The notes beneath the pieces were generated by a model that worked only from the letters and a program-made list of their open reading frames with translations, was not told the DNA's origin and did not search any database. The position numbers and the translations under genes were made by a program. Source: Azolla caroliniana (taxonomy: Eukaryota > Plantae > Polypodiophyta). Taken from it: 64,000 bases of DNA. Positions 6,751-54,354 of the stretch are shown here, piece after piece; position 1 is the first letter of the stretch; each line of letters opens with the position of its first letter. The stretch lies in the NCBI GenBank assembly GCA_043228905.1, contig JBHGNT010000014.1, positions 10,850,001 through 10,914,000 on the forward strand. Direction: 5' to 3'.

Positions 6751-7590
6751 TGTCGTGAAGATCCGTCACTAGGCGCGGATCGCGAGGTGGAACCATCGGG
6801 GTTCAGAACCGGAAGGATCGAAGTTCCCACCAAGCTTAGCGAGAAAGTATTTAGGATAGATTGAGAGAGAGAGAAAGAGATTAAGATTAAACGCTTGACT
6901 TAGATTGAGAAAGATTGATATGGCCAAGAGAGAGATATTGAGATTAAGATTTTAACTCTTGATTTAAGAAACAAGATATATCATCAATGAATTTTCTTCG
7001 CATTAATTTCTTAGTTCATACACGGATCCATAATACATTTTTATCCATCCTTTTATAGATGCCCCCATGCATATGATGCATGTTTGCCATTTGGCGCTCA
7101 TGTATTACATGTGGTGCATCATAACCATGTCACTCATTTTAGCTCTCATTCATAAGAGTTTACATGTAAAAGTACGATGATAGAAATATAATTTCAATTA
7201 AATATCTTGGCTTAGTGGTAAGCCAATTGACTCCCAACTTGGAGGTGCAAGGTTCGAATCCTCACTTGCCCTCGTTGTATATGTATATATATTTATATAT
7301 TTATTTATCTAGTCGCTAGACGTCGGATTGTGAGAGCCTTATTCGTCCTGTCTATGTGGGATATCTCACAATTTTCTCTTTTTCTTTCGCAATTTCTTAC
7401 CCACATAAGTTGACACTTAGATGTCTGTTTCTTATCTAGTAAAGTGCACCTCTTCAAGATCTTCGTCTTTTGTACTAAGATATTAAACTTACTTAGAATT
7501 AGTATATTCACTATTATTGTTTTATATGATTGACACTTTATTTCGACGTCTTATGTGATTTTCACACCATTGCCGAAAATCTTCACGACA
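6751..7590 (-). repeat. 3' LTR of the gypsy element (lacks ~250 bp present in the 5' LTR)
   Basis: Direct repeat of 13417-14508; the segment ~13990-14245 has no counterpart here. Confidence 0.92.
7208..7261 (+). promoter_or_regulatory. tRNA-type (type 2) Pol III promoter-like A box and B box inside the LTR, antisense to the element
   Basis: TGGCTTAGTGG (7208-7218) and GGTTCGAATCC (7251-7261) fit the consensus; the copy at 13874-13927 has a mutated B box (ggtccgaatcc). Confidence 0.7.
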
Positions 7591-7759
7591 TCCACCCCCA
7601 CCAAACCGCACGTCCTCCGGTACATGCCAAGAAGAGAGGGAGAGAGTGAGATTTCGGCTACGGTGATAAATCAGATTCCTCCATGTCTTTATTTACATCT
7701 GCCCTATTATGTTCATTGCCAAGGTGATCGAGGTCATGATCCTCGTCTTTTCTTTTCTT

Positions 7760-10700
7760 GAAAATCTTTACTCTTTTTCCCGCAATGGGTACGACCAACC
7801 TTGATCAGTCTAGCTCTGCAAGGTGGTATGTGGCATTATCGTTGGCACTTGTCACCACATACGGCCCGAACCATCTTCTTGCGAACTTTCTTGTTCTACT
7901 GTGTTGATTGTCAAGGTTGCTGTCGTAAACCAAAACCCAATCTCCTTCTTCAATCTTCTTGGGACGAAATCGATGCGTGTTGTCAAACCGAACTTTGTTC
8001 TTTACTCGGGCTGCCTCCATCATCTTTCGTGCTTTTTCTAGATCTTCAAGTCTTCTTTCAAGTTGCCTTATCCGCGCCGCTAATAACTCTTGTCGGCTCA
8101 TCTCGTTCTCCCACGGTATCGCTACCCATGAGGCGATCGTCCTTTCGATGGGCATTACTGGCTTTTGTCCATACATAAGCTTCGTCAGCATATACCTTGT
8201 CACCGAGCTGTGTGTCGTTCTGTCGACCCACAAGGCATAGGGTAATAGTCGTGGCCAATTCCCGACTCGACCGTTGCATGCCCGTATGATGGCTTTGACG
8301 ATAGGTTCATGCACTTACTCGATCTTCCCATTCGCTTCCGGATTGTAGGTAGTCGTGAGGGAGAGCTTCACGCCTAGTCGTTCGAAGAGCTCTGTCGCTT
8401 CGTGCGCATCCAACTCCCCTCGGTCGGCCACTATCTTCCCCACACATCCGTATCGGCAAACAACCTCTTCAAGTAGAAATTTGCAAATGGCTGAAGTCGT
8501 CTTATTTATCAAGGTTCGTCCTTCCACGTGATTTGCCCAGTCTTCCCTTGCCAGCACTAAGTACTTCATTTGTCCCACTCCCATTGGCATCGAGACCAAA
8601 TCCACCATCCATTTGAAGTGTATGGTGAGTGGGTATGTCGGTCGTAACTCATCACGATGACGTATATTTGAATATATTTGACAAGTTTCACATGTGGACA
8701 CGAAATGGAGTACATCTTTGTACATGCTTGGGCACCAGTACTTCTCCTTCAACTTTTCGAATGTCACCCATGTTTCTCTATGACCTGCCCAAGCACTCTC
8801 GTGGAATTCGGTCATCAGCGTCTCTTGCTCTTCTTTCTTCACCACCACTCGACGTGGTATTCTTGTCCTTCTTTTTGGATGTCACCAAAGGAATCCTCCC
8901 TTCAAGAAGTATCGGTAAGCTTTCTTCCGGATTCGTAGGGCCTCTTCCTTTGTCAACGAAGCATCTGCCGTCAATGTTCTTAGGAATCTACCGATCAGTA
9001 ACCACTCTCCTTCGTACTCGTTCTCGTTGAAGGTGTGGAGATTTTGCGTGTCATAGTCTTCCGCCGATAATCGAGCCATCTTGAAGAAGTCGAGGGCGAC
9101 ATCTTCATCTTCCGAAACCATGTCACTTCAAATTTCAAATCTTGCCCTCGACAGCATGTCAGCCATGTTGTTCTTCTTCCCTGCAATGTGATGGATCTCT
9201 GGGTTTTAAGACTTTATGTAGGTGATCCACCTTAGCATAGCAAGATCTAGGGTCGCACATCCCGAGACCATTCCGAGAATTGGGAGACAATCTGTCTCTA
9301 TTATCACTTCCGACCCGATCAGGTAATCTTTGTCCGTCTTCACTGCCGACACAATGCCCCAAAGTTCCCGCTTGACTTGGGCATATCTTTGTTGCCGTTC
9401 GCTGAGAATGTTTGCTCCGAACCAGACGGCATATCGCGCATTATCTTCTCCTTCTTGATTGATGACCCACCCGATTTCGGTTGGGCTCGTATCTACGGTC
9501 ACGTAAATTGGCTTCCCTTCGGCATAGTCGATCTTTCTTAGTGCCGGAGCTTCAAGAAGCAATTTCTTCAATCTTCGCATCGCATTTGTTTGCTCGTCTC
9601 GCCATTCGAACTTCATTCTTTTCTTTAGTAGTCCATATAATGGTTCAATGACATGAGCGTAGTGTGGAATCCAGATATGTTAAAATGCGCATGCTCCAAG
9701 GAACCTTTTAACCTCCGTTTGGTTTTCGCATTCTTCTTTCATGTCTTGGATCGCGTTCACTTTGTATGGCGAAGGCTTCCGGCCATATGCCCCACACAAG
9801 TGACCTACTACCAAGATCTCCGGTTGCCCGAATGCGGATTTTTCTCCCGAAAATTTCAAATTCGCATCTTCGAGCCTTTAAAGCACCATCTCGCAATCTT
9901 TCATATGATCCGCAACGAACTTTCTACAACCTTCCTTATCTTTCGATTCATCTTTCTCCTCATCCGAACATCCTTTTATCGGAATATCATCCAAGAATGG
10001 CATTGTGATGTCCGGGATGCAATCCTTCAAGACTTTATTCATGGCATTCACCATATGAGCCACCGAATTCGTTGCGCCTTGGGGTAAGGTACACATCCGC
10101 ACAAGCCCGATCGGAGTCCTCATGGTTGTAATGTCCCGACTGTTGATCACCAATTGGAATTGGTCATATCCAAAGTAGAGATCGCCAATGGAGTAGATGG
10201 ACCGGCCTGCAAACGCTTCGACAAATTCGTCCACGCTCGGACCGATTCTGGCATTTCGAATTGTCACCTTGTTGATGGGTTGAAGATCTTTGATGAATCG
10301 CATTGATCCATTCTTCTTCGGCACCGTGAACCACCTATTGGAATAAGGAGCATTCGACGGTTCTAGAATTCCCATAGTCACCTTCTCCTTTAAGAGCTCG
10401 ATCATCTTCGGAAGGTGTGCTCTCAGAGCCGGTATCGGTTTCAAATTCCAAGGCACATGAGGCACTGTGAAGATCACCATCGGCTCTATAACCTTTGGGT
10501 CGACACATCCGATTTCTCGTGGGAAGAATGTGAAAGCCTTCCCATGTCTCTCAAGCATATCGCGAAACATTCACTCCTCTTCAAGGAGAAGGAAATCCTC
10601 CTTTCCAACTCGTAGCTTCCCCTTCGTCTCTTTGGTGAAGACATGCCCTATCGTCTTCGGATCTCTTAAGCTTGGATCATTAGCGACTTCCTTCATCTTT

Positions 10701-11130
10701 TGCCAGCTATCTTCCGGTAGCGGAACCGCAACTAGCTTGATCTTCTTATCCACCGTTTTATATTTCGTGTTGATGTCAACTTCCTTCATCGAGATTCCAC
10801 AACGGTATTCATCGATGATAGCGTACATGTTGACGGAGTTAACCGAAATCATGCGCTGGTCGTGAAGATAGCTCAAGTCCACGACGTCCTCGATTTTGCC
10901 GATGGTGTCGTTAAATGAGGCTTCTTCTGTAATATGAGTCAGGAACACTTCTTCATCTATTATGTTTTCTTCTTTCAGCATCTTCTCGAATTCTTGTATC
11001 CGACGCTTGTCCTTCTTGTCGGGTAGTACTAGTTTCAATGCGCCACTAGGTGTGACACATGTTGCTGCTCCTCGCAATCCACACACTCCTCTTACTTGTG
11101 GGGCTTGTGATTTCTCAAACTATTTGTGAC
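7760..11130 (-). pseudogene. pol: Gypsy pol RT-RNase H-integrase, broken by stops and frameshifts
   Basis: RT 9878-10570 (LPQGATNS, FLDD); RH 9206-9616 (VDTSP, ELWGI, ETDC); INT 8315-8848 (H..H..C..C, VDL, ADRG) and 7805-8314 (GPY motif). No chromodomain seen. Confidence 0.9.
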
Positions 11131-11150
11131 CCATGCTTCAATAGTCCGCT

Positions 11151-13350
11151 CTAAAAATCCGAGGATTCACCTCCGAGACTATCTCGATTCCTTTGATGAT
11201 TGGCTCGCACCGTTAGGAATTGGACCGATCTTTGGTTGTCAAGACTCTTTATTCGTGCGAAGGCTGCTCCATTATCAAACACTTTGTTCTCCATCCGAGA
11301 TGATGTGATATACGGTTGCCCTAGGATGACAGGATGCGACGCCGATTCTTGTACGAAGAAGTGTTGATCCATCTCCACATCCCCGATCGTGACTTTTACA
11401 TTGGGACAAGCTCCGTACAAGTCTTCCGTAGACTTTGTTGCCGCGTGAATCTTCCATCCGTGGTTTGTATTGATTGGCCATCTTCCTTTTTTGTAGAAGT
11501 CGGTTGACATGAGGTTGATCTCCGAGCCGTGGTCGATCAAGGCTACCACGGTCTCTTTCTTCTCCCCGATCTTCACCGGCGTCTCCGTTGTCGCTCGTGC
11601 CCAATGAGGTCGAGTATAGTGGCTGTCCACCATATCTTCATCGACTTCGTCTCTTGCCATCGTTATGGCATTCATTTTTGTTTTTTGCGGCTTCTCTTCT
11701 TCCTCGTCCGATTGTTGTCTTTTTCTCTTTACAAGGTCCACGATCGTGTCATGGAACTCCTTCTTCGTAATGCCAAGCAATTCCCTCAAGGACAAAGTCA
11801 TGTGGCTATCAAGAACTCGTTCTTTGAGAATCTTCTTTAGGTCCATCGTCTGCTCTATGTCCGACCTTAGCTTATAGGTAGGCATAGTCCTTGTCCTCCG
11901 AGCGGGGTCTTCGGAACCAACCTTCACGGGCCGAACCGTTTCTTCTACTCTTATGCTCAGCTCCCCTTTTCGGCTTGATTCTTGTTCCTCCTTTTGTAAA
12001 GGTCGACTCGTCTCCACATCTTCCTTCTTTTTCGCGTTCCTTGTTTCATGTCTTTTTTATGGTCCTTGCTCTTCTATTAATTTTCTCTTTTCTTCGACAA
12101 ACACCTCATGGTTGTCGCACATCACCTCCACGAGCATGGTGTTGTCATCCACCGGATCCAACCACCCAGTTATGCTTTGCACACTTCGGTCCGCAAGCTC
12201 GACCTCATTCGATGTGACCTTCCCCATCTTCTCATACTCAAGAACGGAAGACCAAAACTTGGCTCCCACTTTCACAGCTTCATTTCTGTCTGTCCCGACT
12301 CTTATTCCGGCCGACAAAGCATAGTGCATCGCATCCACTTGAGTCGCATCGGCATCCTCCATAGCTTTCTTCATTCCTCCTCTTCCGAAATTCACCCGTA
12401 GCGGTCTTCTAGTCTCGCTCGAGCAGATCATGTTGTCATCTATGTACACGATATTTTGTCGGATCGCCTCTCGAAGGCTCACACAATCCCTTCTCATGTG
12501 GTCCATGCTATCGCACCACACGCATCTAAAGGGTTCTTTTCCTTTGGGCCCCCGACGATTCATGTTGGCTAGCGTGACCTTCTCGAACTTCTTCGCTAGC
12601 TCTTCAATGATGTCATCATCAATCTTCTTTTCTTCTGGGCTGCTTTGTTTGGGCGGCTCAGCTACTTTCGGTTAGCTTGTTTTCTCCGCAACAGTCGATC
12701 CCGCCAAGTCGGTGTCATCAACCCATTGACGATGCTTGTCAAGCTTATTGCATGCTTGCTTTACTACAACCCAGTCTGCCACAAGCCCGTTCGCTTGGGT
12801 ATCATCTTCGAGAAGAGTCCCCAACCCCCGTCTATCCTTCATGTTCGTGGCCTTCAGGAAGTACAAAGTCTTGTCCTCTTCAAGAAACACTTGGTCCGTG
12901 TTGGGGAGATGACTAAACATCTGCTCGAATTCATCGTACACCCTCGAGGCACTCATCTTCTTATTCTTCTTCTCTATCCACTTCATCAGGGCATGTCGAG
13001 TCATCCTCGTTGAGTCTTCAGTCGTGAACTCCGCTAGTATTGTTTTCTCGAACTCGGACCATGTTGTATTACCTTCTTGAAGTTCGATGACGCGTCTTTG
13101 GACGTTGTTGGTGACAACTCTCTTGAAGCTTGCGATTTGACGTGCTTTGGACACATCCCTCTGATTCATCTCCCTTCTATATGTGTCAAGGAACTTCGTA
13201 ATGTTCCTTCCATCAAATTGACCCTCGAGCTTTACGACACAGTCGACGACCTTCTCCACGCTCGCATCGTTGTCTCAAGATCTCATCATTTGTTGAACGA
13301 TTAGCATCATCCTTTCGAGCTCTCCCGCTTGGTTGCTTGAGGACGCCATC
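11151..13350 (-). pseudogene. gag: Gypsy gag plus aspartic protease
   Basis: 12672-13259 (QFDGRNITKFL), 12057-12563 (CVWCDSMDHMRRDC knuckle), 11151-12017 (ALIDHGSEINL, ILGQPY). Confidence 0.88.
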
Positions 13351-13416
13351 TCCAAGTATTAATCTCAGCTTGTTTCTGCCTACCGCCTCTTTCACATCGG
13401 GTTCACCACTTTATTA

Positions 13417-14508
13417 TGTCGTGAAGATCCATGACTAGGTGTGGATCGCGAGGTGGAACCGCCGGGGTTCAGAACCGGAAGGATCCAAGTTCGCACCAAG
13501 CTTAGCGAGAAAGTATTTAGGATAGATTGAGATAGAGAGAAAGAGATTAAGATTAAACGCTTGACTTAGATTGAGAAAGATTGATATGGCCAAGAGAGAG
13601 ATATTGAGATTAAGATTTTAACTCTTGATTTAAGAAACAAGATATATCATCAATGAATTTTCTTCGCATTAATTTCTTAGTTCATACACGGATCCATAAT
13701 ACATTTTTATCCATCCTTTTATAGATGCCCCCATGCATATGATACATGTTTGCCATTTGGCGCTCATGTATTACATGTGGTGCATCATAACCATGTCACT
13801 CATTTTAGCTCTCATGCATAAGAATTTACATGTAAAAGTATGATGATAGAAATATAATTTCAACTAAATATCTTGGCTTAGTGGTAAGCCAATTGACTCC
13901 CAACTTGGAGGTACAAGGTCCGAATCCACACTTGCCCTCGTTGTATATGTATATATATATATTTATATATTTATTTATCTAGTCGCCGAATGCCGGTTAT
14001 CGGTGGCCGCCGCCTCGCTGGTTGTTGTCGGTTGTCGGATGCTGCCTTCGCCGGATTACCGGCTCTGCCGCCGGCTCGTTGAATGCCGATATCACCAGAT
14101 CACCGGTTACCGTCCAGTTCCATTTTGGTTGGCCAAAACCTTTACAAGTGGCTAGGCCACCTCCACTCTTAGTTCAAGTTACCTTGAACTCCCTATACTC
14201 CACACATAGACACAAAGATAATAACTTTTGCTCTACCTTATATATGGTGAGAGCCTTATTCGTCCTGTCTATGTGGGATATCTTACAATTTTCTCTTTTT
14301 CTTTCGCAACTTCTTACCCACATAAGTTGACACTTAGATGTACGTTTCTTATGTAGTAAAGTGCACCTCTTCAAGATCTTCGTCTTTTGTACTAAGATAT
14401 TAAACTTACTTAGATATAGTATATTCACTATTATTTTTTTATATGATTGACACTTGATTTCGTACGTTATATGTGATTTTCACACCATTGTCGAAAATCT
14501 TCACGGCA
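13417..14508 (-). repeat. 5' LTR of the gypsy element
   Basis: Direct repeat of 6751-7590; the tRNA-Trp PBS begins 8 nt after its end. Confidence 0.92.
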
Positions 14509-14865
14509 CTACTCCACTCTGGCCTCTTGTTGCGCACCGAGTTACGCACCGATCTAGGCAATGTTGCGCACCGATTTATGCACCGATTTACGCACCGATC
14601 TCAAGAATATACAAGTCCTTAAAAGAACTGACAGAAGTACTGACAAGTACTTTAATGCTCATACGAGTGACTGACATTGCCTCCCAAAAATATGCCTACG
14701 TACTAGACTGGATTCGTAGGGCTCTTACGGCTTACCGGTTACAATCCGATCCGGCTCTTGGTTCTGGATACCATCTAGACACTGATCCGGTTCTTCGTTC
14801 CGGACACCAATCTGGCTCTAGCTTGTTCAGCCGATCCGGATCCAGTTGAGCTTGTCTACTAAACA

Positions 14866-17800: not shown

Positions 17801-18187
17801 CGACCGCAGGCACTTGATCTTCCTCTCCGTTTCCTGTTCGACAAGACTTTGTAGGTTCCGGAAACACTGGAAGACTTCTCTTTTCTTCTCTGTGAGATAG
17901 ATCCATGTGTGCCAGTTGTCGTTGTTGATGAAGGAGACGAAATATCAACTCCTCCTAAGATTAATGTTCTATGTCGGTCCCCATACATCTAAATGTATTA
18001 GACCGAGCTTGTTACGACTCTGGTTTCTTTCAGTGGGGAATGGAAGCCGGTGCTACTTCCCAAATTGGCAAGCTTCACACATTTGGGCCTTCCGGAAACT
18101 AAATTTTGGCAATCCAAAAAAAACTTGTTTCGATTGCAGATCTTGAAGCCTCTGTAGTTGACGTGGCCGATCTGCTTGTGCCAGAGA
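14866..18187 (-). mobile_element. Bryco-like copia internal region (INT-RT-RNase H to PPT), cut at 18188 by another copia
   Basis: RH 15570-15866 (GYTNANWAG...YCDN) and 15093-15494 (QVADIFTK); RT 16647-16904 (CRWVYKVK); INT ~17350-18000; PPT next to the LTR. Confidence 0.85.
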
Positions 18188-18926
18188 TGTTGGGAATTCA
18201 GTCCCTCCGGATGAGAACTAGAGGAGCCGGATGAAGGGGCCAAATCCGGAAGGCTTCCGGATGCGACGCAAAAACCGGATTGAGTGAATCCGGATGGATT
18301 CGGTGCAAACCAGATCCAAGAACATATGTGTAAATATGTTTCATAGTGAGCCCATCGAGGCTATATTTGTAAATAGCCCTAAAATCATATAAGTATAAAT
18401 ATGACTTAGGGCAATCACTTTATGTGCAATGAGAGTTGTTGATAGAGTGTGTACACAGTGAGAAAGAGAGAGAGAGACACACACACACACACAGATAGAT
18501 TCCTATTGTAACTACTGGTTGGCGAAGACATAGAGCTCGAGGCCATTGCCTCTAAGTCTCACATTTAATTCCTCCCATTTAGGGTTTCCACGTAAACATC
18601 ATGTGTCATCTCTGTATTAGTTTGTTTTCTTCCATTCCTTGTTTAAGACTCGATTGTGGCCGAGCGTTATTTTTCGCACAAACTGGTATCAGAGCGAACA
18701 AAGGAAAAATGGAAGAATCGTTCGGCGGCATGTTCATGCTCACCGGCTCCAACTACCTAGTGTGGAAGTTGAAGATGAGGGACATGCTTGTGGTCAAAGA
18801 TCTCTGGCTACCGGTGTCGTAGTGTATTTCGTACACTACGTGAAAAAGTAAAAATAATATAACCGATTTAATTACATATAAATAAAAAAAATAATATATC
18901 AAGATATTTATCACGTGCATAGGGCA

Positions 18927-18980
18927 AGATTCGAACCTTGTACCTCCACGTAGCCAAACTTCAACTTCACCATTATGCTA
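18927..18980 (-). promoter_or_regulatory. Pol III A box and B box in LTR U3, antisense to the element (second copy at ~21736-21789)
   Basis: Minus strand TAGCATAATGG (18980-18970) and GGTTCGAATCT (18937-18927), then a T-run terminator candidate at ~18885-18891. Confidence 0.68.
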
Positions 18981-19574
18981 CCTTATCTTTAGTGTTCTAT
19001 AAATAGATTTAATAACTATAAGTGCTTTATTTGCGCCTACCTTTATTAAAAGGCAAATCATGTATTTTTAGAGTGCGTGAATATTTTATAGAAAAACGCA
19101 AGCGACTAAAAAATGACTCATGCACATCTAGCGTGCATGAGCACTATATTTAGCAAATAAAAGCAAGGATTAAAAAAGCATGTAGTTATGCTTAGTCTCT
19201 CCCATCACTACATAAGGATGGGGAGCACAATGTAATAGGTGTGTGAAATATTTGGAAATTGGATATATTTCCGAAAACACCAACCAATTAATATAATCGT
19301 GGGATTCACGAAAATAATATAATTATACTTGTGGGATTCACAAGTTTCTTATATCTTTCTTTCAATCTAAATACATATTCTTATCTAAATATTGATTAAT
19401 CGAATACAATACACTCGTGGGATTCACGAGATTTCTATCTCTCTTTCTAATAATCTATTTATTACTAGCCTCATCTCATATTCTTCTTTCTCCTAGTCCA
19501 AAACCTCGGCGGTTCCCACCCGACTCACGCAACGATTCGGAGCCGAAAGGCACGACACAGTTGGTGAACCCGAC

Positions 19575-21167
19575 GTGAAGGCGGGTGGCAAGGAGATGGA
19601 GAATCAACAAGAGGCAATGAGCATAACGATGATGATGATGTTCGAGCGGATGCTACAAGAACAACGAGTGATGTCGGAGATCACGGGGGCAGTAAAGCGG
19701 CTCGTACAACGAAACGGACAATTCAACGGAAACGATGTGTCACGCTATCTACATGACTACAAGGCAGAGATGATACGATGTGGGATACCAGAAGGATTGC
19801 AAGTGACATCCTTCAATCGGGTGGCCACGGATGAGCTACAAGAGAGAATCCACAAGATACGGCAACAAAACTCGACATGGGGGTCATTCGAAGAAGCTTT
19901 ACGAGAGGCATATGACTACGAGAGATCGAAGGGACGAGATCGACGCAAGTTTGACGAATGGGTGGCATCGGAGAAGACCCACCGAAGTGCAACACAAGCA
20001 TTCCTAGAGTTCGAGAATCGTTTTGCTCGACTCTCGGAGCGGGAACAACAGTTGGTGGGGGAGGATAAAGTCCTAATGTTCGTAAAATCGATCGATCGAA
20101 AAGAAAGGATGGACATTGGGATCGAACTCGAAGACGATGACGGTACGAATGGTCTTACCAAAAATTGGGCTGAAGTCCAAAGGGTATGCCGGAGACATGA
20201 TGAGAGGAAGATGAGAATCTTGTCAACGACATGGCCGATGAAGGATGGTCGATTGAAGACAAACGATGGAGCTGATATGAAGGCCGAAATACAACATGAT
20301 GGTGCGACGGAAGAGGGTGTAAAACAAGCTACCCTCTTGTCTTGCGAAAGAACGATGGCGAAGGATAAGGCCGATAACCCAAGTGTAGAAGAAGATTTCA
20401 GAATACAAGTGTCCGAAACATCGGGTGAAAAAGGGGTAAGCATAATTGATGTTTGCATAATTGATGCAGTGAAAGAGAGCAAGGAGGACTTGATTGAGGA
20501 GGTCGCCACGAAAGATGACATCGAATTGAAGGTGGCTATGGACGAATCAACGACGGATGGCCATATCGAGACTTCCCCACCACTGATTCTAGAGACTCCG
20601 GCGGTTGCGTTCGAAAGGCAACGTGAGACCGAAGAGACGGAAGGTGGCGGAGAGAAAACAAAGGTCGAAGTCGATGCATACGACGGAGAGATAGCCGAGA
20701 ATATGGCTATGGGTGAAACAATGGAGGATGATAATACCGAGGATTCCTACCCACTAATTCTAGAGACTTCGGCAGTTGTGTCCGAGAACCAACGTGAGAC
20801 CGGAGAGACGGGAGGTGGCGGCAAGAAAGGTAAAGTCGGAAGCCAATTAGGATGGAAGGTGATCCGGACGGGATTCCGATCCGAAAGAAAGCCGAACCGG
20901 GTAAAAGAGGATTCGACCGAAAGTCGACCCGAAAGAAAGCCGAACCGAAAGGAAGAGAATTCGGCCGAAAGACGACACAAACGAAAGCTGAATCGGGCGA
21001 ATGAGGATTCGGCCGAAAGACGACCCGAAAGAAAGCCGACCCGAAAAGGGGTCGACTTGGTCAAAACCGATCGACCGAGTCTGACTTGGCCGAACGCGAA
21101 TATGGATGGAAGCCGACCTAGCCGAAAGCCGATCGGACGAAACCGATCCGAAAAGAAGCTAATCTGA
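19575..21167 (+). CDS. gag: Gag-like protein (530 aa) with acidic duplicated middle and basic repeat tail
   Basis: Open frame; N-terminal ~210 aa (QFNGNDVSRYL, SFNRVA, LEDDDGTNGL) homologous to the gag at 12672-13259; no CCHC knuckle; the frame continues past the TGA into ORF 21180-21671. Confidence 0.75.
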   Translation: MKAGGKEMENQQEAMSITMMMMFERMLQEQRVMSEITGAVKRLVQRNGQFNGNDVSRYLHDYKAEMIRCGIPEGLQVTSFNRVATDELQERIHKIRQQNSTWGSFEEALREAYDYERSKGRDRRKFDEWVASEKTHRSATQAFLEFENRFARLSEREQQLVGEDKVLMFVKSIDRKERMDIGIELEDDDGTNGLTKNWAEVQRVCRRHDERKMRILSTTWPMKDGRLKTNDGADMKAEIQHDGATEEGVKQATLLSCERTMAKDKADNPSVEEDFRIQVSETSGEKGVSIIDVCIIDAVKESKEDLIEEVATKDDIELKVAMDESTTDGHIETSPPLILETPAVAFERQRETEETEGGGEKTKVEVDAYDGEIAENMAMGETMEDDNTEDSYPLILETSAVVSENQRETGETGGGGKKGKVGSQLGWKVIRTGFRSERKPNRVKEDSTESRPERKPNRKEENSAERRHKRKLNRANEDSAERRPERKPTRKGVDLVKTDRPSLTWPNANMDGSRPSRKPIGRNRSEKKLI

Positions 21168-24100
21168 CTCAATCGGAGGTTGGACCGGTCGAGGCTGGTG
21201 AAAACGAGGAAAAGAAAGCCAACCGAAACCGAAACCGATAGATCGAAACCGGGCCGGAAGGAGACCGACTCAATCGAAACCGAACAACCGATTCCGATTC
21301 GGCCGAATACGAATCCGATCGAAAGCCGATCAAACCGAAAGTCGATCGGACGAGAGCGATCCGGAAAAAAGTCAAGGTTGATGAAGACAAGAAAGAGGCC
21401 AGTAAAAGACACTACCACGAATGACAAGGGCCAAGAATATGACGAGAGAGAACAAAGAATATGGTGGATCGAATGGCGACAATGGTTCGGGTGGAAAGAA
21501 TGGGTCTACTCAAAATGGAGAGACAAAGTTGACATAGCGGGACAAACGGAGGATGAAGGGGAGACAACGAGCATCGGCAACTTCGGCACATACCGGAGGA
21601 TGTGCGGGTTCGGAGGGGGCGAGTGTCGTAGTGTATTTCGTACACTACGTGAAAAAGTAAAAATAATATAACCGATTTAATTACATATAAATAAATAAAA
21701 TAATATATCAAGATATTTATCACGTGCATAGGGCAAGATTCGAACCTTGTACCTCCACATAGCCAAACTTCAACTTCACCATTATGCTACCTTATCTTTA
21801 GTGTTCTATAAATAGATTTAATAACTATAAGTGCTTTATTTGCGCCTACCTTTATTAAAAGGTAAATCATGTATTTTTAGAGTGCGTGAATATTTTATAG
21901 AAAAACGCAAGCGACTAAAAAGTGACTCATGCACATCTAGCGTGCATGAGCACTATATTTAGCAAATAAAAGCAAGGATTAAAAAAGCATGTAGTTATGC
22001 TTAGTCTCTCCCATCACTACATAAGGATGGGGAGCACAATGTAATAGGTGTGTGAAATATTTGGAAATTGGATATATTTCCGAAAACACCAACCAATTAA
22101 TATAATCGTGGGATTCACGAAAATAATATAATTATACTTGTGGGATTCACAAGTTTCTTATATCTTTCTTTCAATCTAAATACATATTCTTATCTAAATA
22201 TTGATTAATCGAATACAATACACTCGTGGGATTCACGAGATTTCTATCTCTCTTTCTAATAATCTATTTATTACTAGCCTCATCTCATATTCTTCTTTCT
22301 CCTAGTCCAAAACCTCGGCGGTTCCCACCCGACTCACGCAACGATCCGGAGCCGAAAGGCACGACACCGGTACAGTTCAGGTACAATAAACCAGATAAGA
22401 TCGATGTCGCGACATGGGAGGTGATGCACATAAAGACAATGGCGTACATCCGGTGCTTCATCAACATGAGCATGTATAACAACTTAAATGTGCTCATATG
22501 CTCAGGGAGAAAATTAGCACCATGTTGGGGTGTAAAAACACCGTAAATTGGGTTTCGATATTCCGGAAATTAGTGAGACTCCAGTATCAAGATGGATCCA
22601 ATATGGCGGAGCACATGAACCCAATTCAGGGGCTCATAAATCAAACAACTTTGCTCGAAGTACCTCTAGTCGATGAGATACTTTGCATTGCTCCTCTGCT
22701 CGGTTCCCTCCCATATAGTCTGACACGTTGCTGCTGAAAGAAGTCTGACTGGATGCAAATTGCTACTGAAAGAAGTCTGACACATTCCGGAGGTTCGGTT
22801 GAACCTGATATCATCCGGTGGGCTAGATGATGAAGACTACGCGAGTAGCATCTGGAACGGAGTCATGAAATTCAGCAATGCAAGCCTGATTGTGGCTCGA
22901 GCCCGGAAGATCAACATGCTATATCTGATGCATGCCCGGATATGCCGGGAAGAACTGAATGTAGCATCCGACACTATCGGTGAGCTGTGGCACAAGAGAC
23001 TGTGTCATATGAGCCAGAAGGGGATGAGAAGACTTGCCGAAGACAACCTCATTCCGGAGGTGAAAGACGTGCATCTTGATAAGTACACCGATTGTTGGGC
23101 TAGTAAGCAAAACCGAACCTCCTTCTGGTCAAGATCACCAATGAGACGGAATGCACCACTAGAGCTAGTGCATACTGATGTCTGTTAAGTAGACACGAAG
23201 TCACATACCGGATCGCAGTAATTCGTGACGTTCATAGATGACCACAGCCGGAAGTTGTGGGTCTCACCGCTGAAGACGAAGGATCAGGTGTTGTCTGTCT
23301 TCAAGGAGCTCCACGCGTGAGTGGAAAGAGAAACCGGATGGAAGCTGAAAGCGGTTCAAGCATATAATGGAGGAGAGTACTATGGGCAGTTCGAAGAGTA
23401 CTACCGATCGAAGGGAATCCAGCTCGAATTCACCGTGCTGAAGATGCCAGAACTAAACAAGCTAGCCGAATGGATGAACCGGACTGTGATGTAGAGAGTT
23501 CGGAGCATGCTAGCACATGCAAAGCTACCCAAGACATTTTGGGTTGAAGCACTGATTACGGAGACGTATGTGATAAACAGATCACCCTTGGATGGAGAAA
23601 CACCACAGACAGTATGGACTGGTGGAGACGTGTCTTACCAGTATCTGAAGGTGTTTGGTTGTCTCGCATATGTGCATGTCGCAAAGGACAAGAGAGCAAA
23701 CTTGGATCCGAAGACCCAACCATGCATATTTCTTGGATACGACGATGATGAGTTCTGTTACCGGGTGTGGGATCTGGTTGAAAAGAAGGTGTTCCGGAGT
23801 CAGGACATTGTCTTCATGGAAGACAGGACCATTGGTGACTGGGAGTTGGAGAAGAAGGTGAAGAACTCCGGATCATCCAATGAAAACCGGTTTGAGGACA
23901 CAAGAACCTACCTAGTGGAAAACCAAAAGTTAGCCGGTAACAGATTAACACTCGATGAACGGGCCGGATTCGGACAAGAAACCCAACCAACCGAAGAAGA
24001 AGAAAAAGGAGACACCGGAACTAGACAAGACCCTGAATCAGATTTGGATGAAGAACAAACGGAGGAACCGGTAGTTGAAGAACAAAGGCGGAGATACCCT

Positions 24101-24438
24101 CTCAGGGAGGGAAGAGCCCCTCGAAGATTTCTGGATGCAGAGCATGTATTGCTGACCGATGAGGGGGAGCCTGAAAGCTTCGAAGAAGCAAAGAAAAACA
24201 CCCACAACTGCAAGTGGTTGAGTGCCATGCAGGACGAGATGGATTGCCTACATGAGAAGCACACATACGAACTGACAGAGTTGCCGAAAGGAAAGAGGGA
24301 ACTCTGGAACAAGTGGGTGTACAAGCTGAAACAAGGAGACGCCGGAAATCCACCAAGGAACAAAGCCCGGATCGTCGTGAATGGGTTGTAGTAGAAGAAA
24401 GAAGTGTTAGGAAACAGGTCCCTCCGGATGGGAAGTGA

Positions 24439-24540
24439 GAAGACCCGGTGAGAACCGGATGTGGAGTACCCGGCAACGAAAGACCCGGTGAGAATCGGAT
24501 GAGGAGTACCCGGCAACGGAAGACCCGGTGAGAATCAGAT
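24439..24540 (+). repeat. Roughly 39-bp tandem repeats in LTR U3 (also ~30772-30870 and inverted at ~27240-27350)
   Basis: aagacccggtgagaa(c/t)cggatg..gagtacccggcaacg repeated about 2.5 times. Confidence 0.8.
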
Positions 24541-24749
24541 GGCATGTGCCCCGCAAGCGCCGGATGATGCAAGCCCGGTGAGGACTGCTCACCGGATGAA
24601 GGGACATATTCGTAAATATGTTTTTGAGAGTCTATCGGGGCTATATTTGTAAATAGCCGAAAAGTCATATTAGTATAAATATGACTTAGGGCAAACTTAG
24701 TAATAAGTAATTGTCATTCTTGTAGGTGCACGATTAGAGCGCAACAGTG

Positions 24750-24751
<2 letters not shown>

Positions 24752-24800: not shown

Positions 24801-24807
<7 letters not shown>

Positions 24808-35848: not shown

Positions 35849-35883
35849 ATATGTACTTTTCTACCACTTAATCAATGAAGGAT

Positions 35884-46391: not shown

Positions 46392-48574
46392 AGAATTAAA
46401 TTGCTTGTTTTGAGTAACTTATCTACTGTATAATTAAATTGTTGATTTCATGATAGTGCTTTTTCTTAAAATTATGCAAACTATTTTAACTTGTACATGG
46501 TTTACTTGAGTATATCAGAAACAAGAACCCTAAATGATATTATTAAACTGTATATTAGAAAGAAGACTGTATATAAAAATGACACACAATTTTGTTGAGA
46601 AAGAAACACAAAAAGTAGACTGTATATCAAAAATAAAAATCCCAAACACTTCCAATAAACTGTTTATTTGCAATACATGTGCTTTGTTTGTTTTACAAGA
46701 AAACTCGTAAATTGCTACTTGTAGCTACAAATTCCATGGCATACTGTTGTAAATACATTCATACACATTAGCACTAACTATGTATAAACCTAAGCAGCTA
46801 TTGTATTGCAACATTGGGACATTGATGCACCTGACCAAATGAGAGGACATGTACACCATTGGTTTGTCTTCTAATATAGCCTATACACATAATCGTAATA
46901 ATCTAGTCTTGCATAAAAAATACCTTCGATGTAGAATGTCCCGGTAGATACGACATTTCCCCAAGCATCTAATATATTCTACGTTGCACACTCTTTACTA
47001 ACCGTGCACTTCAATATATAGAAATCAGCATGGAGAGATCAACTGCATTTACAATGAAATTATCCCCAACATTTAAGACATCCTTCAAAGTATCTCCACA
47101 TCCTTGATATGTGACGTCAAAATTCTTTTTTGTTTCTCTATCAACTGCTTCTTTATCGTTCAATGTATGATCCTCCCAATTCTGAATATATGCTTTGTTT
47201 AAACAATACCTCCAATTTCCCTGCACACAATGGAAGCAAAAACAAGTTAATTCTCTAACAGCAATACAATGACCATCCAACCTAGAATAACCACGAAAAG
47301 CATGAAGAGATCGCAATTCGGGAATTCCTTAGCACTTCCAGGTCTTCTTCCTATTTACTTCATCTATCTTCACTTCCCAAAATTCACGTTTGATATCTCG
47401 GATCTGCGAGGAATAAACACCAGTTGCACTCGTTGACATATTAGCTCTTAAAAATTCAACTAAATGTTTTGCACAATTCATCTGCACACCATCTGCGTTT
47501 AGTTGTTCATGGGTGAGTGCTTGCTTTATAACAATACCTACACCATCATGTTCACCTTTACCATGCATGGCCAGACCCAAAAAAATTCCATCTCATCTCT
47601 AAACCTGTTATAGCAGGATACCACCCCACAAAATAAAATGGACGTCTAGCCTTGAATTGTGACACAACTCCATTAGACCAGACCCAATGTTGAGTAAGCT
47701 CCAAACGTTTAGCCAATAACCATTGCCAATGTAAGTTAAAACAATGTTGGACGAACAAGGTATCATGCTTCTTATCATCGGACATAAAAAAATGAATTAC
47801 TTTTTTAACATCACCTGAAACTCGAAAATATTTTATGTGCACAAAAATGGTTACCTGCACTGAACACCAATGCATAGATTGAATTTCATTCTGCTGCTTG
47901 AAAGTATAATTCTCTACGAAATCTACTACTGAGACTACTACATCATTTGGAAAATCAGATACGCAAGTCTTAAACTGATGGGCTTGCCATGAATAAATGA
48001 AGGTGTGTTTAATGAACTTTCCTAGAGATACTACAAATAGAGACGCCAAATCCCTTGGTTTAAGTGACTTCCTAACTAGATCCTTTCTTTTACACACCTT
48101 TCCTTCAAAATTGGTGTCAACTGACTCAAATAACTTGACAGAGAATTCATTTGGACACCACCTAAATCTACTAGGACCACAATCTTGACATAAACCCATG
48201 ACACATTTATGAATGTGGAAGATGGCCTTAGTTTCTGTCGGACATAATACAGAATCTAAAAGACAACTCATGAAAGAGATAACATGCTCAGATGATTTAC
48301 AGTGCTCATGCAGGCTCGATCGACAAATTGGGCACACACAAGTGCAAATTTCATTTGTTAGGGAGGCACTATGGTGACATAGTAGATTAACAGAGTCCTT
48401 GGGACAACCCATTTGTACATGGTAAATGCAACAACATGTGTATCGATCCTTCAAGCGTCTCACAAAGTGTGACTTAAGTGACTCAAATATTCGTAGTTGA
48501 ACTTTGATATTTGGATGCATTCGCCTGAACCTAATAACTAAATTGACCTGCGTAATAAAATGTACATACTGATT

Positions 48575-48703
48575 AGCTCTATGGATAAGTGGCAACTAAT
48601 TAGCTACTACCATAGTTTAGTACAGTAGCTAATTAACTAAGTGGTAGCTAATTAGCTACTACCATACTTTAGTTGAGTAGTTAATTAGCTAGCACTTAGC
48701 TAA
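48575..48703. repeat. Left remnant of the palindromic TAGCTAATTAGCTA satellite
   Basis: Same units as 54355-56245, separated from them by the chromovirus insertion. Confidence 0.9.
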
Positions 48704-48713
48704 TGTCATGGCA

Positions 48714-48767
48714 AGACTCGAACCCATGACTTTATGCTACATGGGTCGAGCTCTTACCATTAGATTA
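48714..48767 (-). promoter_or_regulatory. Pol III A/B box-like pair at the start of chromovirus U3, antisense (second copy 53924-53977)
   Basis: Minus strand TAATCTAATGG (imperfect A box, 48767-48757) and GGTTCGAGTCT (48724-48714). Confidence 0.55.
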
Positions 48768-48881
48768 TGAATTGTATTTTGTAGGATATTATTTTCATTT
48801 ATACTTTATCATAGAAAATTGATGTATATTCCAGATCTCTCTGGAACATTCTAGAAGCTTCAGGATTATTCCTAAAAACAC

Positions 48882-48888
48882 TATAAAA
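48882..48888 (+). promoter_or_regulatory. LTR TATA box
   Basis: cTATAAAAgg about 30 nt upstream of the sequence complementary to the PBS. Confidence 0.75.
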
Positions 48889-49144
48889 GGAGGCACAAGG
48901 CATTGTTTTGAACCAAATTGGTTCAACGCCAGTCTTAAGCCTCTTAGCCGCTTGTACTTATCTTTTCACATAATATATAGCTGCTGTCATCATCTCTCTC
49001 TCTCTCTCATTCTCGCTATCTCTCTCTCTCTCCTCTTCTCACTTCCTCTCTCGGGAATCTTACGCAGTCCCGTCCTCTTAGTACTAATAGTACTGTTGTT
49101 CTTAGTACTAATTCCATCTCTGTTTTAGTACTATTCCTGACAGT

Positions 49145-49156
49145 TTGAACCAATTT
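49145..49156 (+). other. Self-priming primer binding site
   Basis: ttgaaccaattt is the exact reverse complement of aaattggttcaa at 48915-48926; no tRNA-type TGG PBS follows the LTR. Confidence 0.85.
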
Positions 49157-49211
49157 GTTCCTCTAGCCTACTTGTCACTCTCCCTCATCCTCCTACCCTT
49201 TTCCCTATACT

Positions 49212-50350
49212 ATGGCTACTGTTAGCGCCCAAGAATACCAATCCGTTTTCTCCGAGCTACAGTGCCTAAAAGAAAAGTTTGTTGCCCTGGAACAAGAAAA
49301 CCAACGGTTGATAGGGGATCTACAACAAATCGCTCTAGAAAAACAACAAACACAACAACAACATGGGGAGTTAGCGTTACGGGTACAACAACTCGAAGCA
49401 GCGTTGCAACAACAAGGATCCAGTCCCCAAGGATTTCATAAAGAGCCCAAGATTGGACTTCCTGTGAAATTTGATGGAACGCGTTCGCAATTCCGGGGAT
49501 TCCTTAATCAGGTACGCTTAGTCATCCAGATGCATCCTTCCCGATATCCCACTGATGCATCTCGAGTCGGCCTAATAGGCACACTACTTAGCGGCTCAGC
49601 CTTGGCATGGTTTGCTCCGCTTCTAGAAAAACAATCACCCTTACTTAATAACTTTGAAGATTTTATTGGTGAGTTTAAAGCCTGCTTTGGAGACACCGAC
49701 AGCATCAGGACGGCGATCAACAAGATCCGGCGATTGCGTCAAGGCGATCGTCCAGCCTCTGCCTACGCGGCGGATTTCCGCCTACTTGCTTCAGATATAC
49801 CCTGGGATGATCAAGCACTAATGGAGCAGTTTCGCTATGGCTTGCGAAACGATGTCAAAGATCTACTTCTAACTTTCCCCGAAGAACCAAAGTCTCTTAC
49901 GGAGGCAATCAGTCGAGCAGTTCGATGTGACAACCGCCTTTTTGAATGGCGTTCAGAACGTCAATTACAGATACCACTTACGCCGCAGTCGCGGCTAAAC
50001 CGTTTGCACGAGACATACCTCAAGCAAATACTTCGACACCGATGGAGATCGATACCATGCGTCGACGCGGCCCGTTATCGGAAGAAGAAAAGCAACGACG
50101 ACGTGTCAATCGATTATGTCTTTATTGCGGTGGACCAGGACATATCGCCATCAATTGTCCCCATAGGCCAAGAAGACAGGTAAATCAAATCGTCGCCTGT
50201 ACTAAACCCGAGTCAATTCTTCCCTTCGGAGTGTCTGATAGTATTAATAGTACTAATAGAGTGTCAGATAGTATTCATAGTACTAATAGCCCAAGTATCT
50301 CAAATAAATTTGAAATCCTTAGTCAATTAGATGAAGAGTTAAACGATTGA
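49212..50350 (+). CDS. gag: Chromovirus Gag (coiled coil, capsid, CCHC), frameshifted near 49970
   Basis: 49212-50183 has [14 protein letters not shown] and LRQG...F..GL; the knuckle [14 protein letters not shown] lies in another frame (49946-50350). Confidence 0.88.
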
Positions 50351-53300
50351 GTCCAGCCAAAATAGGAGCCATTTGGTTGGACAGCAGCCCTAGATCTATA
50401 CAGCCCATTAGTGGTTCCATTCCTTCCAAGCAAGTTAGCAATGTGTTCCTAGCCCAAGTCATTGTTAGTACTAAAAGTACTCCCCCAGTACCCGTCCTAG
50501 CACTTTTAGATTCCGGAGCTAATTCCTGTTTCATGGATCGAAATTTTGCCCAAGCTTCTCAGATATCCTTAAGAAAACTTCCTTGTCCCGCATCTTCGTC
50601 CCATTGCTTCCGGGAATATTGTAGAAGAATCAGAACCCATTCAAGTTGTCCTAGGTAGTTTTGTGTGTATAATATCATTTAATATAATTAGTAGTCCAGA
50701 GCATCCTATTGTCCTAGGATTACCTTGGCTTGAATTACATAATCCAGCCATAGATTGGAGAACAAGAGAAGTCCGATATCGACCACCCCAAGAATCAACT
50801 CACCGAGTTTCGACCATTTCACTCCATCAACTACGCGAAGAAGGACCAAAGGAGGCAATGTTCCTATTTGCCATATCAGTACATCCTTCTAGCACTATTA
50901 AGAAGGACTCCTCAATACAACTTCCGGCAAAATATCATCCTTATGCCGATGTATTTGACAAGGTAAAAGCCGGTACCCTTCCTCATCACCGTCCCTATGA
51001 CTGTCCCATCGATTTACAACCAGGAACCGAGCCACCATGGGGACCAATTTACAACTTGTCACCCACCAAGTTAGAAGTCCTTCGAGCCTACATAGAGGAG
51101 AACTTGGCAAGCGGGTTCATCCGTCATTCGAAATCTCCGGCCGGTGCACCCATCTTCTTTGTCAAGAAGAAAGATGGCTCACTTCGTCTTGTCGTTGATT
51201 ACCGCGGATTGAATAAAGTCACCATCCGGAATAGGTATGCACTTCCTCTTATATCAAGTCTTTTAGAGCGAGTTAATGGTGCCAAGTTTTTTACTAAAAT
51301 CGACCTACGAGGAGCGTATAATCTCGTGCGGATCCGACCGGGAGATGAGTGGAAGACCGCTTTTCGCACACGGTATGGGCATTTCGAATATACTGTTATG
51401 CCGTTTGGCCTAACCAATGCACCCGCAGTCTTCCAACACATGGCAAATGATATATTCAGAGACCTCTTGGATATCTGTTTGATCATTTATCTGGATGATC
51501 TGTTGATTTATTCGAAGACCCAGGAAGAGCACGATTCTCATGTACTATTAGTACTAAAGCGACTCCGCGAGAATGGTCTTTATGCCAAGCTAGAGAAATG
51601 TAGCTTTGACTGCAAGCAAGTGGAATTTCTAGGCTACGTCATCTCCTCAAAGGGCATCGCCATGGATCCAGCTAAAATCCAAACTGTACTAGAGTGGCAA
51701 AATCCACGGTCGGTACGAGATGTACAATGTTTTCTAGGCTTTGCTAACTTCTACCGTAAGTTTATACAAGATTACTCGAAGATTATTTTACCTCTCACAC
51801 AACTTACGAAGAAGGGCCAAGCATTTCTTTGGTCCATCGAAGCAGATATGGCTTTTCGGCATCTTAAGAAAGCCTTTACATCAGCACCGATTCTAGCTCA
51901 TGTGGATACAAGCAAACCATTCATCATGGAGGCCGACGCATCAGATTTCGCCCTCGGTAGCATCCTTTCTCAACAAGGCGATAAAGAAGAGTTGCATCCG
52001 GTGGCTTTCCATTCGCGCAAATTCAAGGTTGCAGAAATCAACTACGAAATACATGACAAGGAGTTATTAGCCATCGTGGATTCATTTGTACAATGGCGGC
52101 ATTTCTTAGAGGGCTCTCCACATCAGGTCATTGTCTTTAGCGATCATAAAAATCTTGCTTATTTTCAGAACGCTCGCGTACTAAATCGACGGCAAGCTCG
52201 GTGGGCGCAATTCCTCACGCGTTTCAACTTCGAAATCACATATCGACCGGGGAAGCAGCAAGGAAAAGCAGATGCACTATCACGGCGTTCATATCTTGCA
52301 CCTCGTCCTGGTGACGCAACATTTGATAATCAAAAGCAAGTAATCTTGGGACCAACACGATTGCACACAACGCGGATTTTTCACACCCCGATGGATTCAC
52401 GGATTACCGATGACATACGTGCAACCTTGAAGACGGATAGTTTTGCTCAAGACATCCTGGCGCACATTGATACTTCTCGGGCATCCTGTTCTCAGTCTCA
52501 ACAACCAGGTATTGACTACCGACAATTCGAATATCATGATGGTTTGTTATTCTTTAAAAAGCGCGTATATGTCCCCGATTGCTCCTGTCGCCTTCAAATC
52601 GTCCAACATTGTCACGACACCCATACGGCGGGACATTTCGGTAGTACCAAGACGTTGGAGTTAGTGCAGCGATCTTTTTGGTGGCCCCACATGCGCCGTT
52701 TTGTCGACGACTATGTTCGGACCTGTGATGCTTGCTGCCGAGCAAAGATGCCACGACACCATCCATATGGCTTGTTGGAACCTTTACCAATTCCAAGTAA
52801 GCCATGGCAGTCTATTTGTCTTCATTTTATTACAGATCTGCCGGTCTCGAAGGGGTTCGATGTTATCCTAACCGTCGTCGATCGATATACGAAGATGGCA
52901 CATTTTGTGCCATGTACTAAAGCCATCACTAGCGAGGAAACCGTCGCTCTTGTTATGCGTGAGGTATTTCGGCATCATGGCCTACCAGACAGTATTATCA
53001 GTGACCGAGGCCCGCAATTTGTCTCCAAATTTTGGCAGCATCTCTTCAGGATGCTCAAGGTCTCCTGCAACCTCTCCTCCGGCTACCATCCTCAAACTGA
53101 CGGACAGGCGGAACGAACAAACCAAACGTTGGAGCAATATCTCCGGTGTTTCCTGAGTTATCAACAGGACGATTGGGCCGAGATTCTCCACTTTGCGGAG
53201 TTTGCGTATAATAATGCTATTCACTCCTCGACTCGGGTTTCCCCATTTCTCGCTTATACCGGTTTCCATCCTCGCTGGTCGGTGATCGACACTCCAGAGC

Positions 53301-53902
53301 TACCTACCAACCCTCGTGCCGAGGACCATTTGGAGAGGCTACGCAAGATCCAGATGGATCTCTCTACTCACCTTCGTCATGCTCAACACACACAGAAGAC
53401 TTATGCGGATCGTCATCGGATTCCCTCCTCTTTTGCCATCGGAGATCGAGTATGGCTCTTACGTCGTCACATCAAGACTACTCGACCGTGCGACAAGTTG
53501 GATTATCGACGACTCGGTCCTTTCCGTATTACGGGGAAGATTAATGATGTCACCTTCCGCCTGGATCTCCCTCCGCAGCTTCAGATACATCCGGTTTTCC
53601 ATTGTTCTCTTCTTGAACCTTATAAAGCAAACACCATTCCTGAACGTGTGACACCACCGCCGCCCCCGCTGGAGTTGGACGCCGGCCTGGAGTATGAAGT
53701 TGCTGCCATCCTCGATTCCAAACTTATTCGCAACAAACTTTATTACTTGGTCGATTGGCTCGGTTATAGTCCGAGCGAACGTACTTGGGAACCCGTCGAG
53801 AATGTTGCCAATGCACAAGATCTTCTTGCTGATTTCCACCGAAAGTATCCGGACAAACCCGGTCCGCAATTAGCGCCGACTCGTTCCACTCGTCGTCTTT
53901 AA
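50347..53902 (+). CDS. pol: Chromovirus Pol: protease (frameshifted near 50600), RT, RNase H, integrase, chromodomain
   Basis: LLDSGA; YLDD; EADASD / ELLAI / SDH; HHCC; GPF motif; C-terminal YEVAAILD...YLVDWLGY...TWEP. The 1079-aa frame 50663-53902 is open. Confidence 0.95.
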
Positions 53903-54354
53903 GGGGGAGATAGTGTCATGGCAAGACTCGAACCCATGACTTTATGCTACATGGGTCGAGCTCTTACCATTAGATTATGAATTGTATTTTGTAGGATATT
54001 ATTTTCATTTATACTTTATCATAGAAAATTGATGTATATTCCAGATCTCTCTGGAACATTCTAGAAGCTTCAGGATTATTCCTAAAAACACTATAAAAGG
54101 AGGCACAAGGCATTGTTTTGAACCAAATTGGTTCAACGCCAGTCTTAAGCCTCTTAGCCGCTTGTACTTATCTTTTCACATAATATATAGCTGCTGTCAT
54201 CATCTCTCTCTCTCTCTCATTCTCGCTATCTCTCTCTCTCTCTCCTCTTCTCACTTCCTCTCTCGGGAATCTTACGCAGTCCCGTCCTCTTAGTACTAAT
54301 AGTACTGTTGTTCTTAGTACTAATTCCATCTCTGTTTTAGTACTATTCCTGACA

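Follow-up and report, generated by a model that had tools for sequence, protein, structure and literature searches.

Why should the long terminal repeats (LTRs) of protein-coding gypsy retrotransposons hold the two promoter boxes of a transfer RNA (tRNA) gene, turned against the element itself? The question is raised by 64,000 nucleotides of DNA from the fern Azolla caroliniana (assembly GCA_043228905.1, contig JBHGNT010000014.1, positions 10,850,001 to 10,914,000 of the forward strand; hereafter the window, in which positions are counted from the first letter). The elements of the window were resolved by self-BLAST, open reading frames (ORFs) and Pfam. Nested LTR retrotransposons make up the window, among them numerous copia pieces and four units of the gypsy type: F1 and F2, two Phygy-type elements; F2b, a solo LTR resembling those of F2; and T, a Tcn1-like chromovirus. 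An earlier note on this DNA had described pairs of A and B boxes, the type 2 promoter of RNA polymerase III (Pol III), in the U3 of these LTRs, and had proposed that three families independently acquired a module that insulates the LTR promoter or makes a short antisense RNA. We found that the pairs are real and non-random, and the comparisons below point to two origins, not three. As to what the modules do, we tentatively favour a protein-binding site beside the RNA polymerase II (Pol II) promoter.

Antisense A/B-box pairs in the gypsy LTRs

The window was scanned for the A and B consensus with a gap of 30-35 nt and at most one mismatch. Seven pairs were found, one in each gypsy LTR (7/7). 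The direction of each element was taken from ORF strands, the primer site and the polypurine tract, and all seven pairs proved to be antisense to their element. The gap was 32 nt in every case, which is 43 nt from start to start, and the pairs showed 0-1 mismatch to the A and B consensus. The four pairs of the earlier note were thus correct in coordinates, strand, spacing and antisense direction, and the sister LTRs bring the total to seven.

In F1, which runs on the minus strand, both modules lie on the plus strand. The 3' LTR has its A box at 7208-7218 and its B box at 7251-7261, both without mismatch and with an AT-rich tail behind the B box; the 5' LTR has its A box at 13874-13884 and its B box at 13917-13927, the latter with one consensus break. 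The modules of F2 are on the minus strand, at 18927-18980 in the 5' LTR (A box 18980-18970, B box 18937-18927, 0 mismatches) and at 21736-21789 in the 3' LTR (A box start 21789, B box start 21746). F2b carries an A box at 26633-26643 and a B box at 26676-26686 on the plus strand, antisense to the element. This A box had been called degenerate; it has one consensus break only. The modules of T are on the minus strand. That of the 5' LTR (48714-48767; A box 48767-48757 with one break, B box 48724-48714) stops 10 bp inside the LTR end, and that of the 3' LTR (53924-53977; starts 53977 and 53934) is aimed at the polypurine tract and the integrase.

The chance level was estimated from 500 block-wise dinucleotide shuffles of the window and from 1000 shuffles of each of the three LTR types. 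The shuffled windows contained 0.052 pairs on average (maximum 2), as against the seven observed, and a pair arose in 3, 0 and 0 of 1000 shuffled LTRs for the three types. None of the 11 other LTR-like repeat segments in the window has a pair.

We infer that the modules are located in U3, because a TATA-like motif follows each of them approximately 115-260 bp downstream and, in T, the complement of the self-primer site (48914-48926) lies downstream as well. The modules are not tRNA genes, which have a cloverleaf with an anticodon arm: in agreement with the earlier note, ARAGORN predicted 0 genes, and Rfam gave no tRNA match for three modules even at E<=10.

Origin of the modules

The common spacing invites the idea that unrelated elements converged on one geometry. 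We rejected this use of the 43-nt spacing, which is ordinary tRNA geometry: among 14 real tRNA genes of a control genome (G001), it is the commonest spacing (6/14), the remainder having 42-45 nt. In L055, the closest chromovirus relative described below, the spacing is 46.

The spacers between the boxes match those of real tRNA genes at 10-15 of 32 positions in F1 and F2, and tRNA ancestry, or ancestry from a tRNA-derived short interspersed element (SINE) of the SINE2 class, is therefore likely for these modules. The LTRs of F1 and F2 align with each other only in the B-box half of the module and the AT-rich tail (74 bp, E 1.6e-6); they also agree in a short, non-significant motif equally far from the 3' end. 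Their spacers are identical at 17 of 32 positions and at 11 of the last 13. These comparisons indicate that the two Phygy-type modules are homologous. The T spacer is identical to those of F1 and F2 at 7-11 of 32 positions only, and homology between the chromovirus module and the Phygy modules was rejected; the earlier note, too, had seen no further likeness of the chromovirus LTR to the tRNA-Trp families.

Its view of three independent acquisitions does not hold, because F1 and F2 have module and tail in common. On these alignments there are two origins in the window, that of a Phygy-type module and that of a separate Tcn1-like chromovirus module. The F1/F2 module would have been either inherited from a common element or received twice from the same SINE. 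At least two captures, from a tRNA or from a SINE derived from one, are likely.

Spread of the module in the F1 family and in relatives

Contigs of four public DNA runs with four organism codes (X1, X4, X17 and X19) were aligned to 7120-7290. They cover the F1 module deeply in 4/4 runs, and the module is therefore family-wide. It is not a private SINE copy. The F1 family is abundant, as judged from contigs on the whole F1 5' LTR without the AT tail (40 of 169 variant rows listed). The summed depth of the B-box half relative to upstream U3 was 1.1, 1.8, 5.5 and 4.8 in the four runs, where depth is not copy number. Among the 24 of 203 rows of loose contig ends that were listed, the intervals 7206-7216 and 7254-7269 come up in more than one run, and further repeat families, LTRs or SINEs, therefore have just the tRNA-length core in common with F1.

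Relatives of the chromovirus were sought in 2 of 64 parts of a metagenome collection. This gave 80 loci, 76 of which were less than 53% identical, so close relatives are few. The four chromovirus-like loci at least 53% identical in integrase are L055, L002, L001 and L009. In L055 an antisense module occupies the corresponding LTR end; its A box is perfect and its B box has one break. In L002 an antisense B box, accompanied by a weak A box, stands there too. In 109 loci, together 710 kb, a pair with one mismatch or none occurred four times: in L055, in L028, where the pair is taken as chance, and twice in L099. The two pairs of L099 (4834-4889 and 5002-5055) are perfect and in sense orientation, approximately 110 and 275 nt into the 3' LTR. 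We take L099 and its relatives to be seed-plant Tekay-type chromoviruses. A search of viral contigs with single window proteins, a Phygy alignment and the module pattern gave no match.

Terminators and predicted RNA products

If the modules were transcribed, where would the RNA end? Counted from the B-box start, the first run of four T residues lies at +46 in F2 and +34 in F2b, and in F1 such runs lie at +121 and +206; the F2 antisense RNA has a predicted length of approximately 100 nt. The T LTR has no such run on its antisense strand, and a transcript from the 5' LTR would therefore enter the flanking DNA and one from the 3' LTR would run approximately 1.4 kb into the integrase. In L055 and L002, terminators stand close behind the B box.

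The T module overlaps a hairpin of approximately 21 bp (48708-48760) at the LTR end, with a folding z-score of -6.45 on the antisense and -4.09 on the sense strand. Its copy in the 3' LTR adjoins the polypurine tract. The arms of the hairpin are kept in L055 and the loop is not, and the fold is weaker there (z -1.9); folds are also weak in L002 (-1.4) and F2 (-0.4). Both a conserved terminator and a conserved fold were rejected, as both vary among families. With neither a terminator nor a fold that all families share, the comparison argues against a shared RNA product and would favour a role at the DNA level, if any.

It was also observed that the integrase-chromodomain region of T (52561-53913) has no run of four A residues on the sense strand and thus nothing to end an antisense Pol III transcript within 1365 nt of the 3' module. 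Such a stretch is rare in codon shuffles (P=0.007), and third-position A drops there from 29% to 15%. We did not use this as evidence; 4/105 related integrase stretches are also without a terminator.

A candidate TFIIIC/TFIIIB site beside the Pol II promoter

A type 2 promoter that faces backward within U3 is unable to produce the element's template RNA; such boxes, if under selection, must therefore do something else. The explanation that we prefer, while granting it somewhat less than an even chance, is that captured tRNA or SINE heads have been retained as TFIIIC/TFIIIB sites next to the Pol II promoter. A single insertion into one U3 would have been copied into both LTRs at the following reverse transcription. 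With TFIIIC on the boxes, TFIIIB and its TBP would come to lie on the side of the module nearer to the TATA box used by Pol II, at a distance of 115-260 bp, and Pol III would be directed outward, away from the start site of the element. The result could be a nucleosome-poor site or a barrier on the flank where heterochromatin spreads in. By helping to hold the adjoining Pol II promoter open, TFIIIC binding would cause the module to be kept. Any RNA would be mostly a by-product, because terminators differ among families. It is established that TFIIIB/TFIIIC act as barriers in yeast (PMC9540200), and the mechanism as a whole is inferred by analogy with yeast and animal precedent.

Several observations can be counted for a TFIIIC site. 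The seven pairs far exceed the shuffled mean, the F1 and F2 modules are homologous, and a module stands at the same LTR end in L055 (clearly) and in L002 (with a weak A box). Variation within the F1 family also tends to spare the defining positions of the boxes. The 40 variant rows counted were each at 8% or more; in 4/4 runs, variants in the A box were confined to its two purine-choice positions and those in the B box to its CpG. At this CpG, changes compatible with the consensus outnumbered those that break it by 1.6-2.7 times (36/15, 74/45, 44/23 and 46/17 contigs). Consensus-defining box positions were broken in 1/17 cases, while spacer positions varied in 13/32 (Fisher p=0.018). The flanks of some modules resemble those of plant tRNA genes (PMC13578239): F1 and T both have CAA at -6/-7, and T in addition has TATA at -29.

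A number of facts, however, weigh against this explanation. When any variant is counted, the boxes (4/22 positions variable) differ significantly neither from the spacer (13/32, p=0.14) nor from the upstream flank (17/87, p=1.0). The A box is identical between F2 and F2b at only 8/11 positions, below its flanks (49/60 and 59/66); for the B box the figure is 10/11, and for the neighbouring U3 it is 78-89%. Thus, the expectation of the earlier note that the boxes are better conserved than the adjoining U3 was not borne out. Broken B boxes occur in single copies (at 13917 and in L055), contig counts are non-independent events, and the alignment may favour a conserved core. The CAA motif is missing from F2 and F2b. 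Among the relatives, two of the four closest chromoviruses (L001 and L009) have no module, and the pair was found in 0/9 relatives of L099. It is also absent from L146, a complete 1445-bp Phygy-type LTR whose element is 58% identical to F1 in integrase. Finally, in its available part, a review of barriers in plants cites TFIIIC for yeast and animals only (PMC9540200). We consider the evidence for selection on the boxes suggestive and mixed, and the module is recurrent but patchy among relatives.

L146 comes from a plant contig within the control genome G001, a cyanobacterial genome bin. Plant-type retrotransposon contigs in this bin (C16, C91, C92, C123, C148, C175, C201 and C259) are probably contamination.

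The main rival to a retained TFIIIC site is that the modules are neutral relics, which we regard as possible, if rather unlikely. A short tRNA-derived SINE would have entered the U3 of a few founders and hitch-hiked since, its reverse orientation merely tolerated and its boxes and spacing inherited from the tRNA. The commonness of the 43-nt spacing in tRNA genes (6/14), the patchy distribution, the ordinary conservation of the boxes relative to adjoining U3 and the AT-rich, SINE-like tail at the end of the F1 and F2 modules are all in line with such a history, and the extra families behind the loose ends could be a free SINE. It is also stated that 'not a few LTRs' in Repbase have tRNA-like parts, with SINE insertion as the proposed origin (PMC10886601). 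Neutral hitch-hiking accounts less well for the fact that 0/7 modules in the 64 kb lie outside LTRs, with no target duplication around them by eye, for the module being the sole U3 island common to F1 and F2, or for variation that spares consensus-defining positions.

If the RNA itself were the functional product, a short antisense Pol III transcript from U3, of approximately 90-100 nt in F2 and F2b and with a hairpin of approximately 21 bp in the chromovirus, would feed small-RNA pathways and limit or tune the element. The T runs shortly behind the B boxes of F2 and F2b, the antisense bias of the chromovirus hairpin with its arms kept in L055, and the Pol III hairpins of bovine leukemia virus (PMC12498455) speak for such a product; nevertheless it seems improbable, for the terminators are not conserved (distant in F1, none in the T LTR or for 1.4 kb from the T 3' LTR, close in L055 and L002) and the folds differ by family and are weak in F2, L055 and L002. 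The hairpin of T raises the further thought that the inverted repeat at the LTR end, as a DNA or RNA structure by the polypurine tract, is what is conserved, the box match being partly a by-product. The B box and the LTR end are indeed mirrored by the final four A-box bases together with the spacer's first half, and both arms, not the loop, are conserved in L055. We judge this very unlikely, since the hairpin leaves out the first seven A-box bases, which follow the consensus all the same (no break in L055 and one in the window), L002 has a B box without this hairpin, and F1 and F2 would be left unexplained. That the modules attract, as landing pads or decoys, retroelements of the kind that insert upstream of Pol III genes is hardly credible, as 0/7 module-bearing LTRs contain a nested insertion and the sister LTRs are collinear, except for one deletion in F1.

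A broader form of the TFIIIC/TFIIIB explanation is that at least three plant gypsy clades (Phygy, Tcn1 and Tekay) repeatedly co-opted tRNA-type modules in U3 as a portable shield. An autonomous, Pol II-driven element would then bring its own barrier into heterochromatin and seed thousands of extra TFIIIC sites in its host. This generalization is doubtful, and we put it forward as a conjecture.

The carrier elements

F1 is a decayed Phygy-type gypsy element of 7.8 kb (6751-14508, minus strand). By sequence comparison, its 3' LTR (6751-7590, 840 bp) is shorter by a deletion of 252 bp than its 5' LTR (13417-14508, 1092 bp), and the pair shows 34 differences over 840 aligned bases. The 252-bp gap (7317-7327 against 13987-14243) lies directly past the AT tail of the module. 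F1 may be a recombinant copy, because of this loss and because a matching target duplication is absent at the element ends. The internal region (7591-13416) holds pieces of gag, protease, reverse transcriptase, RNase H and integrase, broken by stops. The gag match to DUF4100 is weak, and no chromodomain was found in the F1 pieces with Pfam. The tRNA-type primer site is at 13392-13408, which we take to be that of tRNA-Trp.

F2 (18815-22366, plus strand) is a young, gag-only, non-autonomous Phygy-type element of 3.6 kb. Its LTRs (18815-19557 and 21624-22366) show 5 differences in 743 bases, its primer site is at 19562-19578, and it has a 4-bp target duplication of the form NCGN. The F2 gag is 30% identical to that of F1 (E 6e-34); the ORF (19497-21167) begins with a Phygy-type gag N-terminus and continues into a long, repetitive, charged tail without a Pfam match. 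The solo LTR F2b (26094-26799, minus strand) is 71% identical to F2 overall and also has a 4-bp NCGN duplication. A motif of approximately 25 nt just 5' of the polypurine tract is common to F1 (7591-7630), F2 (21584-21623) and L146 (575-618), although the LTRs of the three do not align with each other.

T (48704-54354, plus strand) is a 5.7-kb element with a 5-bp target duplication, an open gag (49167-50183) and an open pol with chromodomain (50573-53902; Chromo PF00385, E 5e-13). Its LTRs (48704-49142 and 53914-54354) show 0 substitutions in 439 bases, and the element is very young. The self-primer site (49145-49157) is the 13-nt complement of 48914-48926. T sits inside a palindrome-rich 52-bp tandem array (48527-48703 and 54355-56120) with higher-order units of 33, 160 and 212 bp; Rfam microRNA matches in this array were judged spurious.

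The elements were classed by sequence features and best matches. For Phygy, the best named matches of the F1 reverse transcriptase were proteins of the liverwort Riccia (66-74% identity), and F2 and F2b have NCGN duplications; for Tcn1, T has a chromodomain and a self-priming site instead of a tRNA primer site. Phygy elements prefer NCGN target duplications and Tcn1 uses self-priming, and both have been described in moss and club-moss (PMC6317226).

Comparison with known systems

Plant LTR retrotransposons are taken to be transcribed by Pol II only, Cassandra being the stated exception (PMC12786077). Cassandra, a terminal-repeat retrotransposon in miniature (TRIM), has in its LTR a Pol III promoter derived from 5S RNA (PMC10886601, PMC12786077). 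It resembles the window elements in having an internal Pol III promoter in a plant LTR, and differs from them in that the promoter is of type 1, makes the RNA of the element itself and belongs to a non-autonomous element.

In bovine leukemia virus, the Pol III microRNA cluster is located outside the LTR. The virus is like the window elements in combining type 2 Pol III boxes and hairpins within a Pol II-driven retroelement, but its B boxes lie downstream of the terminator and its RNAs have been demonstrated (PMC12498455). The tRNA-gene and TFIIIC barriers of yeast and animals would act as proposed here, but they are host genes and not part of a mobile element (PMC9540200). The tRNA-derived SINE2 elements (box definitions in PMC2774510) share with the modules a tRNA-like head whose A and B boxes have tRNA spacing, the lost cloverleaf and, for F1 and F2, the AT-rich tail. 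Unlike SINE2 elements, the modules spread as part of an LTR, with no free copy in the window and no target duplication seen.

The nearest likeness is with the Helenus TRIMs, or TRIMp3 (Kojima 2024), whose LTRs have tRNA-derived A and B boxes; only TRIMs were analysed there (PMC10886601). As in the window, conserved boxes stand in a tRNA-like stretch of both LTRs without a functional tRNA; an origin from SINEs with repeated independent births was proposed, and one family is found in the seed-free plant Selaginella (PMC10886601). The Helenus elements, however, are non-coding and 311-1263 bp long (PMC10886601), whereas those of the window measure 3.6, 5.7 and 7.8 kb and have gag or gag-pol. In four LTR consensuses read by eye (Helenus-1_SMo and three wasp families), the Helenus boxes are in sense orientation; they are thought to make the template RNA. 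In the window elements the boxes point away from the element, TATA-like motifs are kept, and one element has an intact gag-pol. The window elements thus have the boxes in both LTRs and are neither short non-coding TRIMs nor driven by a sense promoter of this kind. Kojima reasons that Pol II promoters must serve the autonomous partners of TRIMp3, and that long LTR stretches common to both are unlikely (PMC10886601).

In the available parts of Neumann 2019 (PMC6317226) and Novikova 2010 (PMC2864245), no mention was found of Pol III boxes in Phygy or Tcn1 LTRs. Nor did our literature search, which lay outside Repbase entries, subscription journals and bioRxiv supplements, find an account of antisense A/B boxes in Phygy, Tcn1, Tekay or other protein-coding plant gypsy LTRs. 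LTR promoters derived from tRNA were already known in Helenus TRIMs (PMC10886601), which the earlier note does not mention.

If the boxes are under selection, they would represent a new cis-acting strategy to escape or tune silencing, and would offer a ready test for TFIIIC barriers in plants, built on an abundant family, an intact young element and one mutated B box. Should they be neutral, the modules still matter as a large source of false tRNA and SINE annotations. Set beside the systems above, the antisense boxes in coding gypsy LTRs are a new form of the known tRNA-derived LTR promoters, with a putative function.

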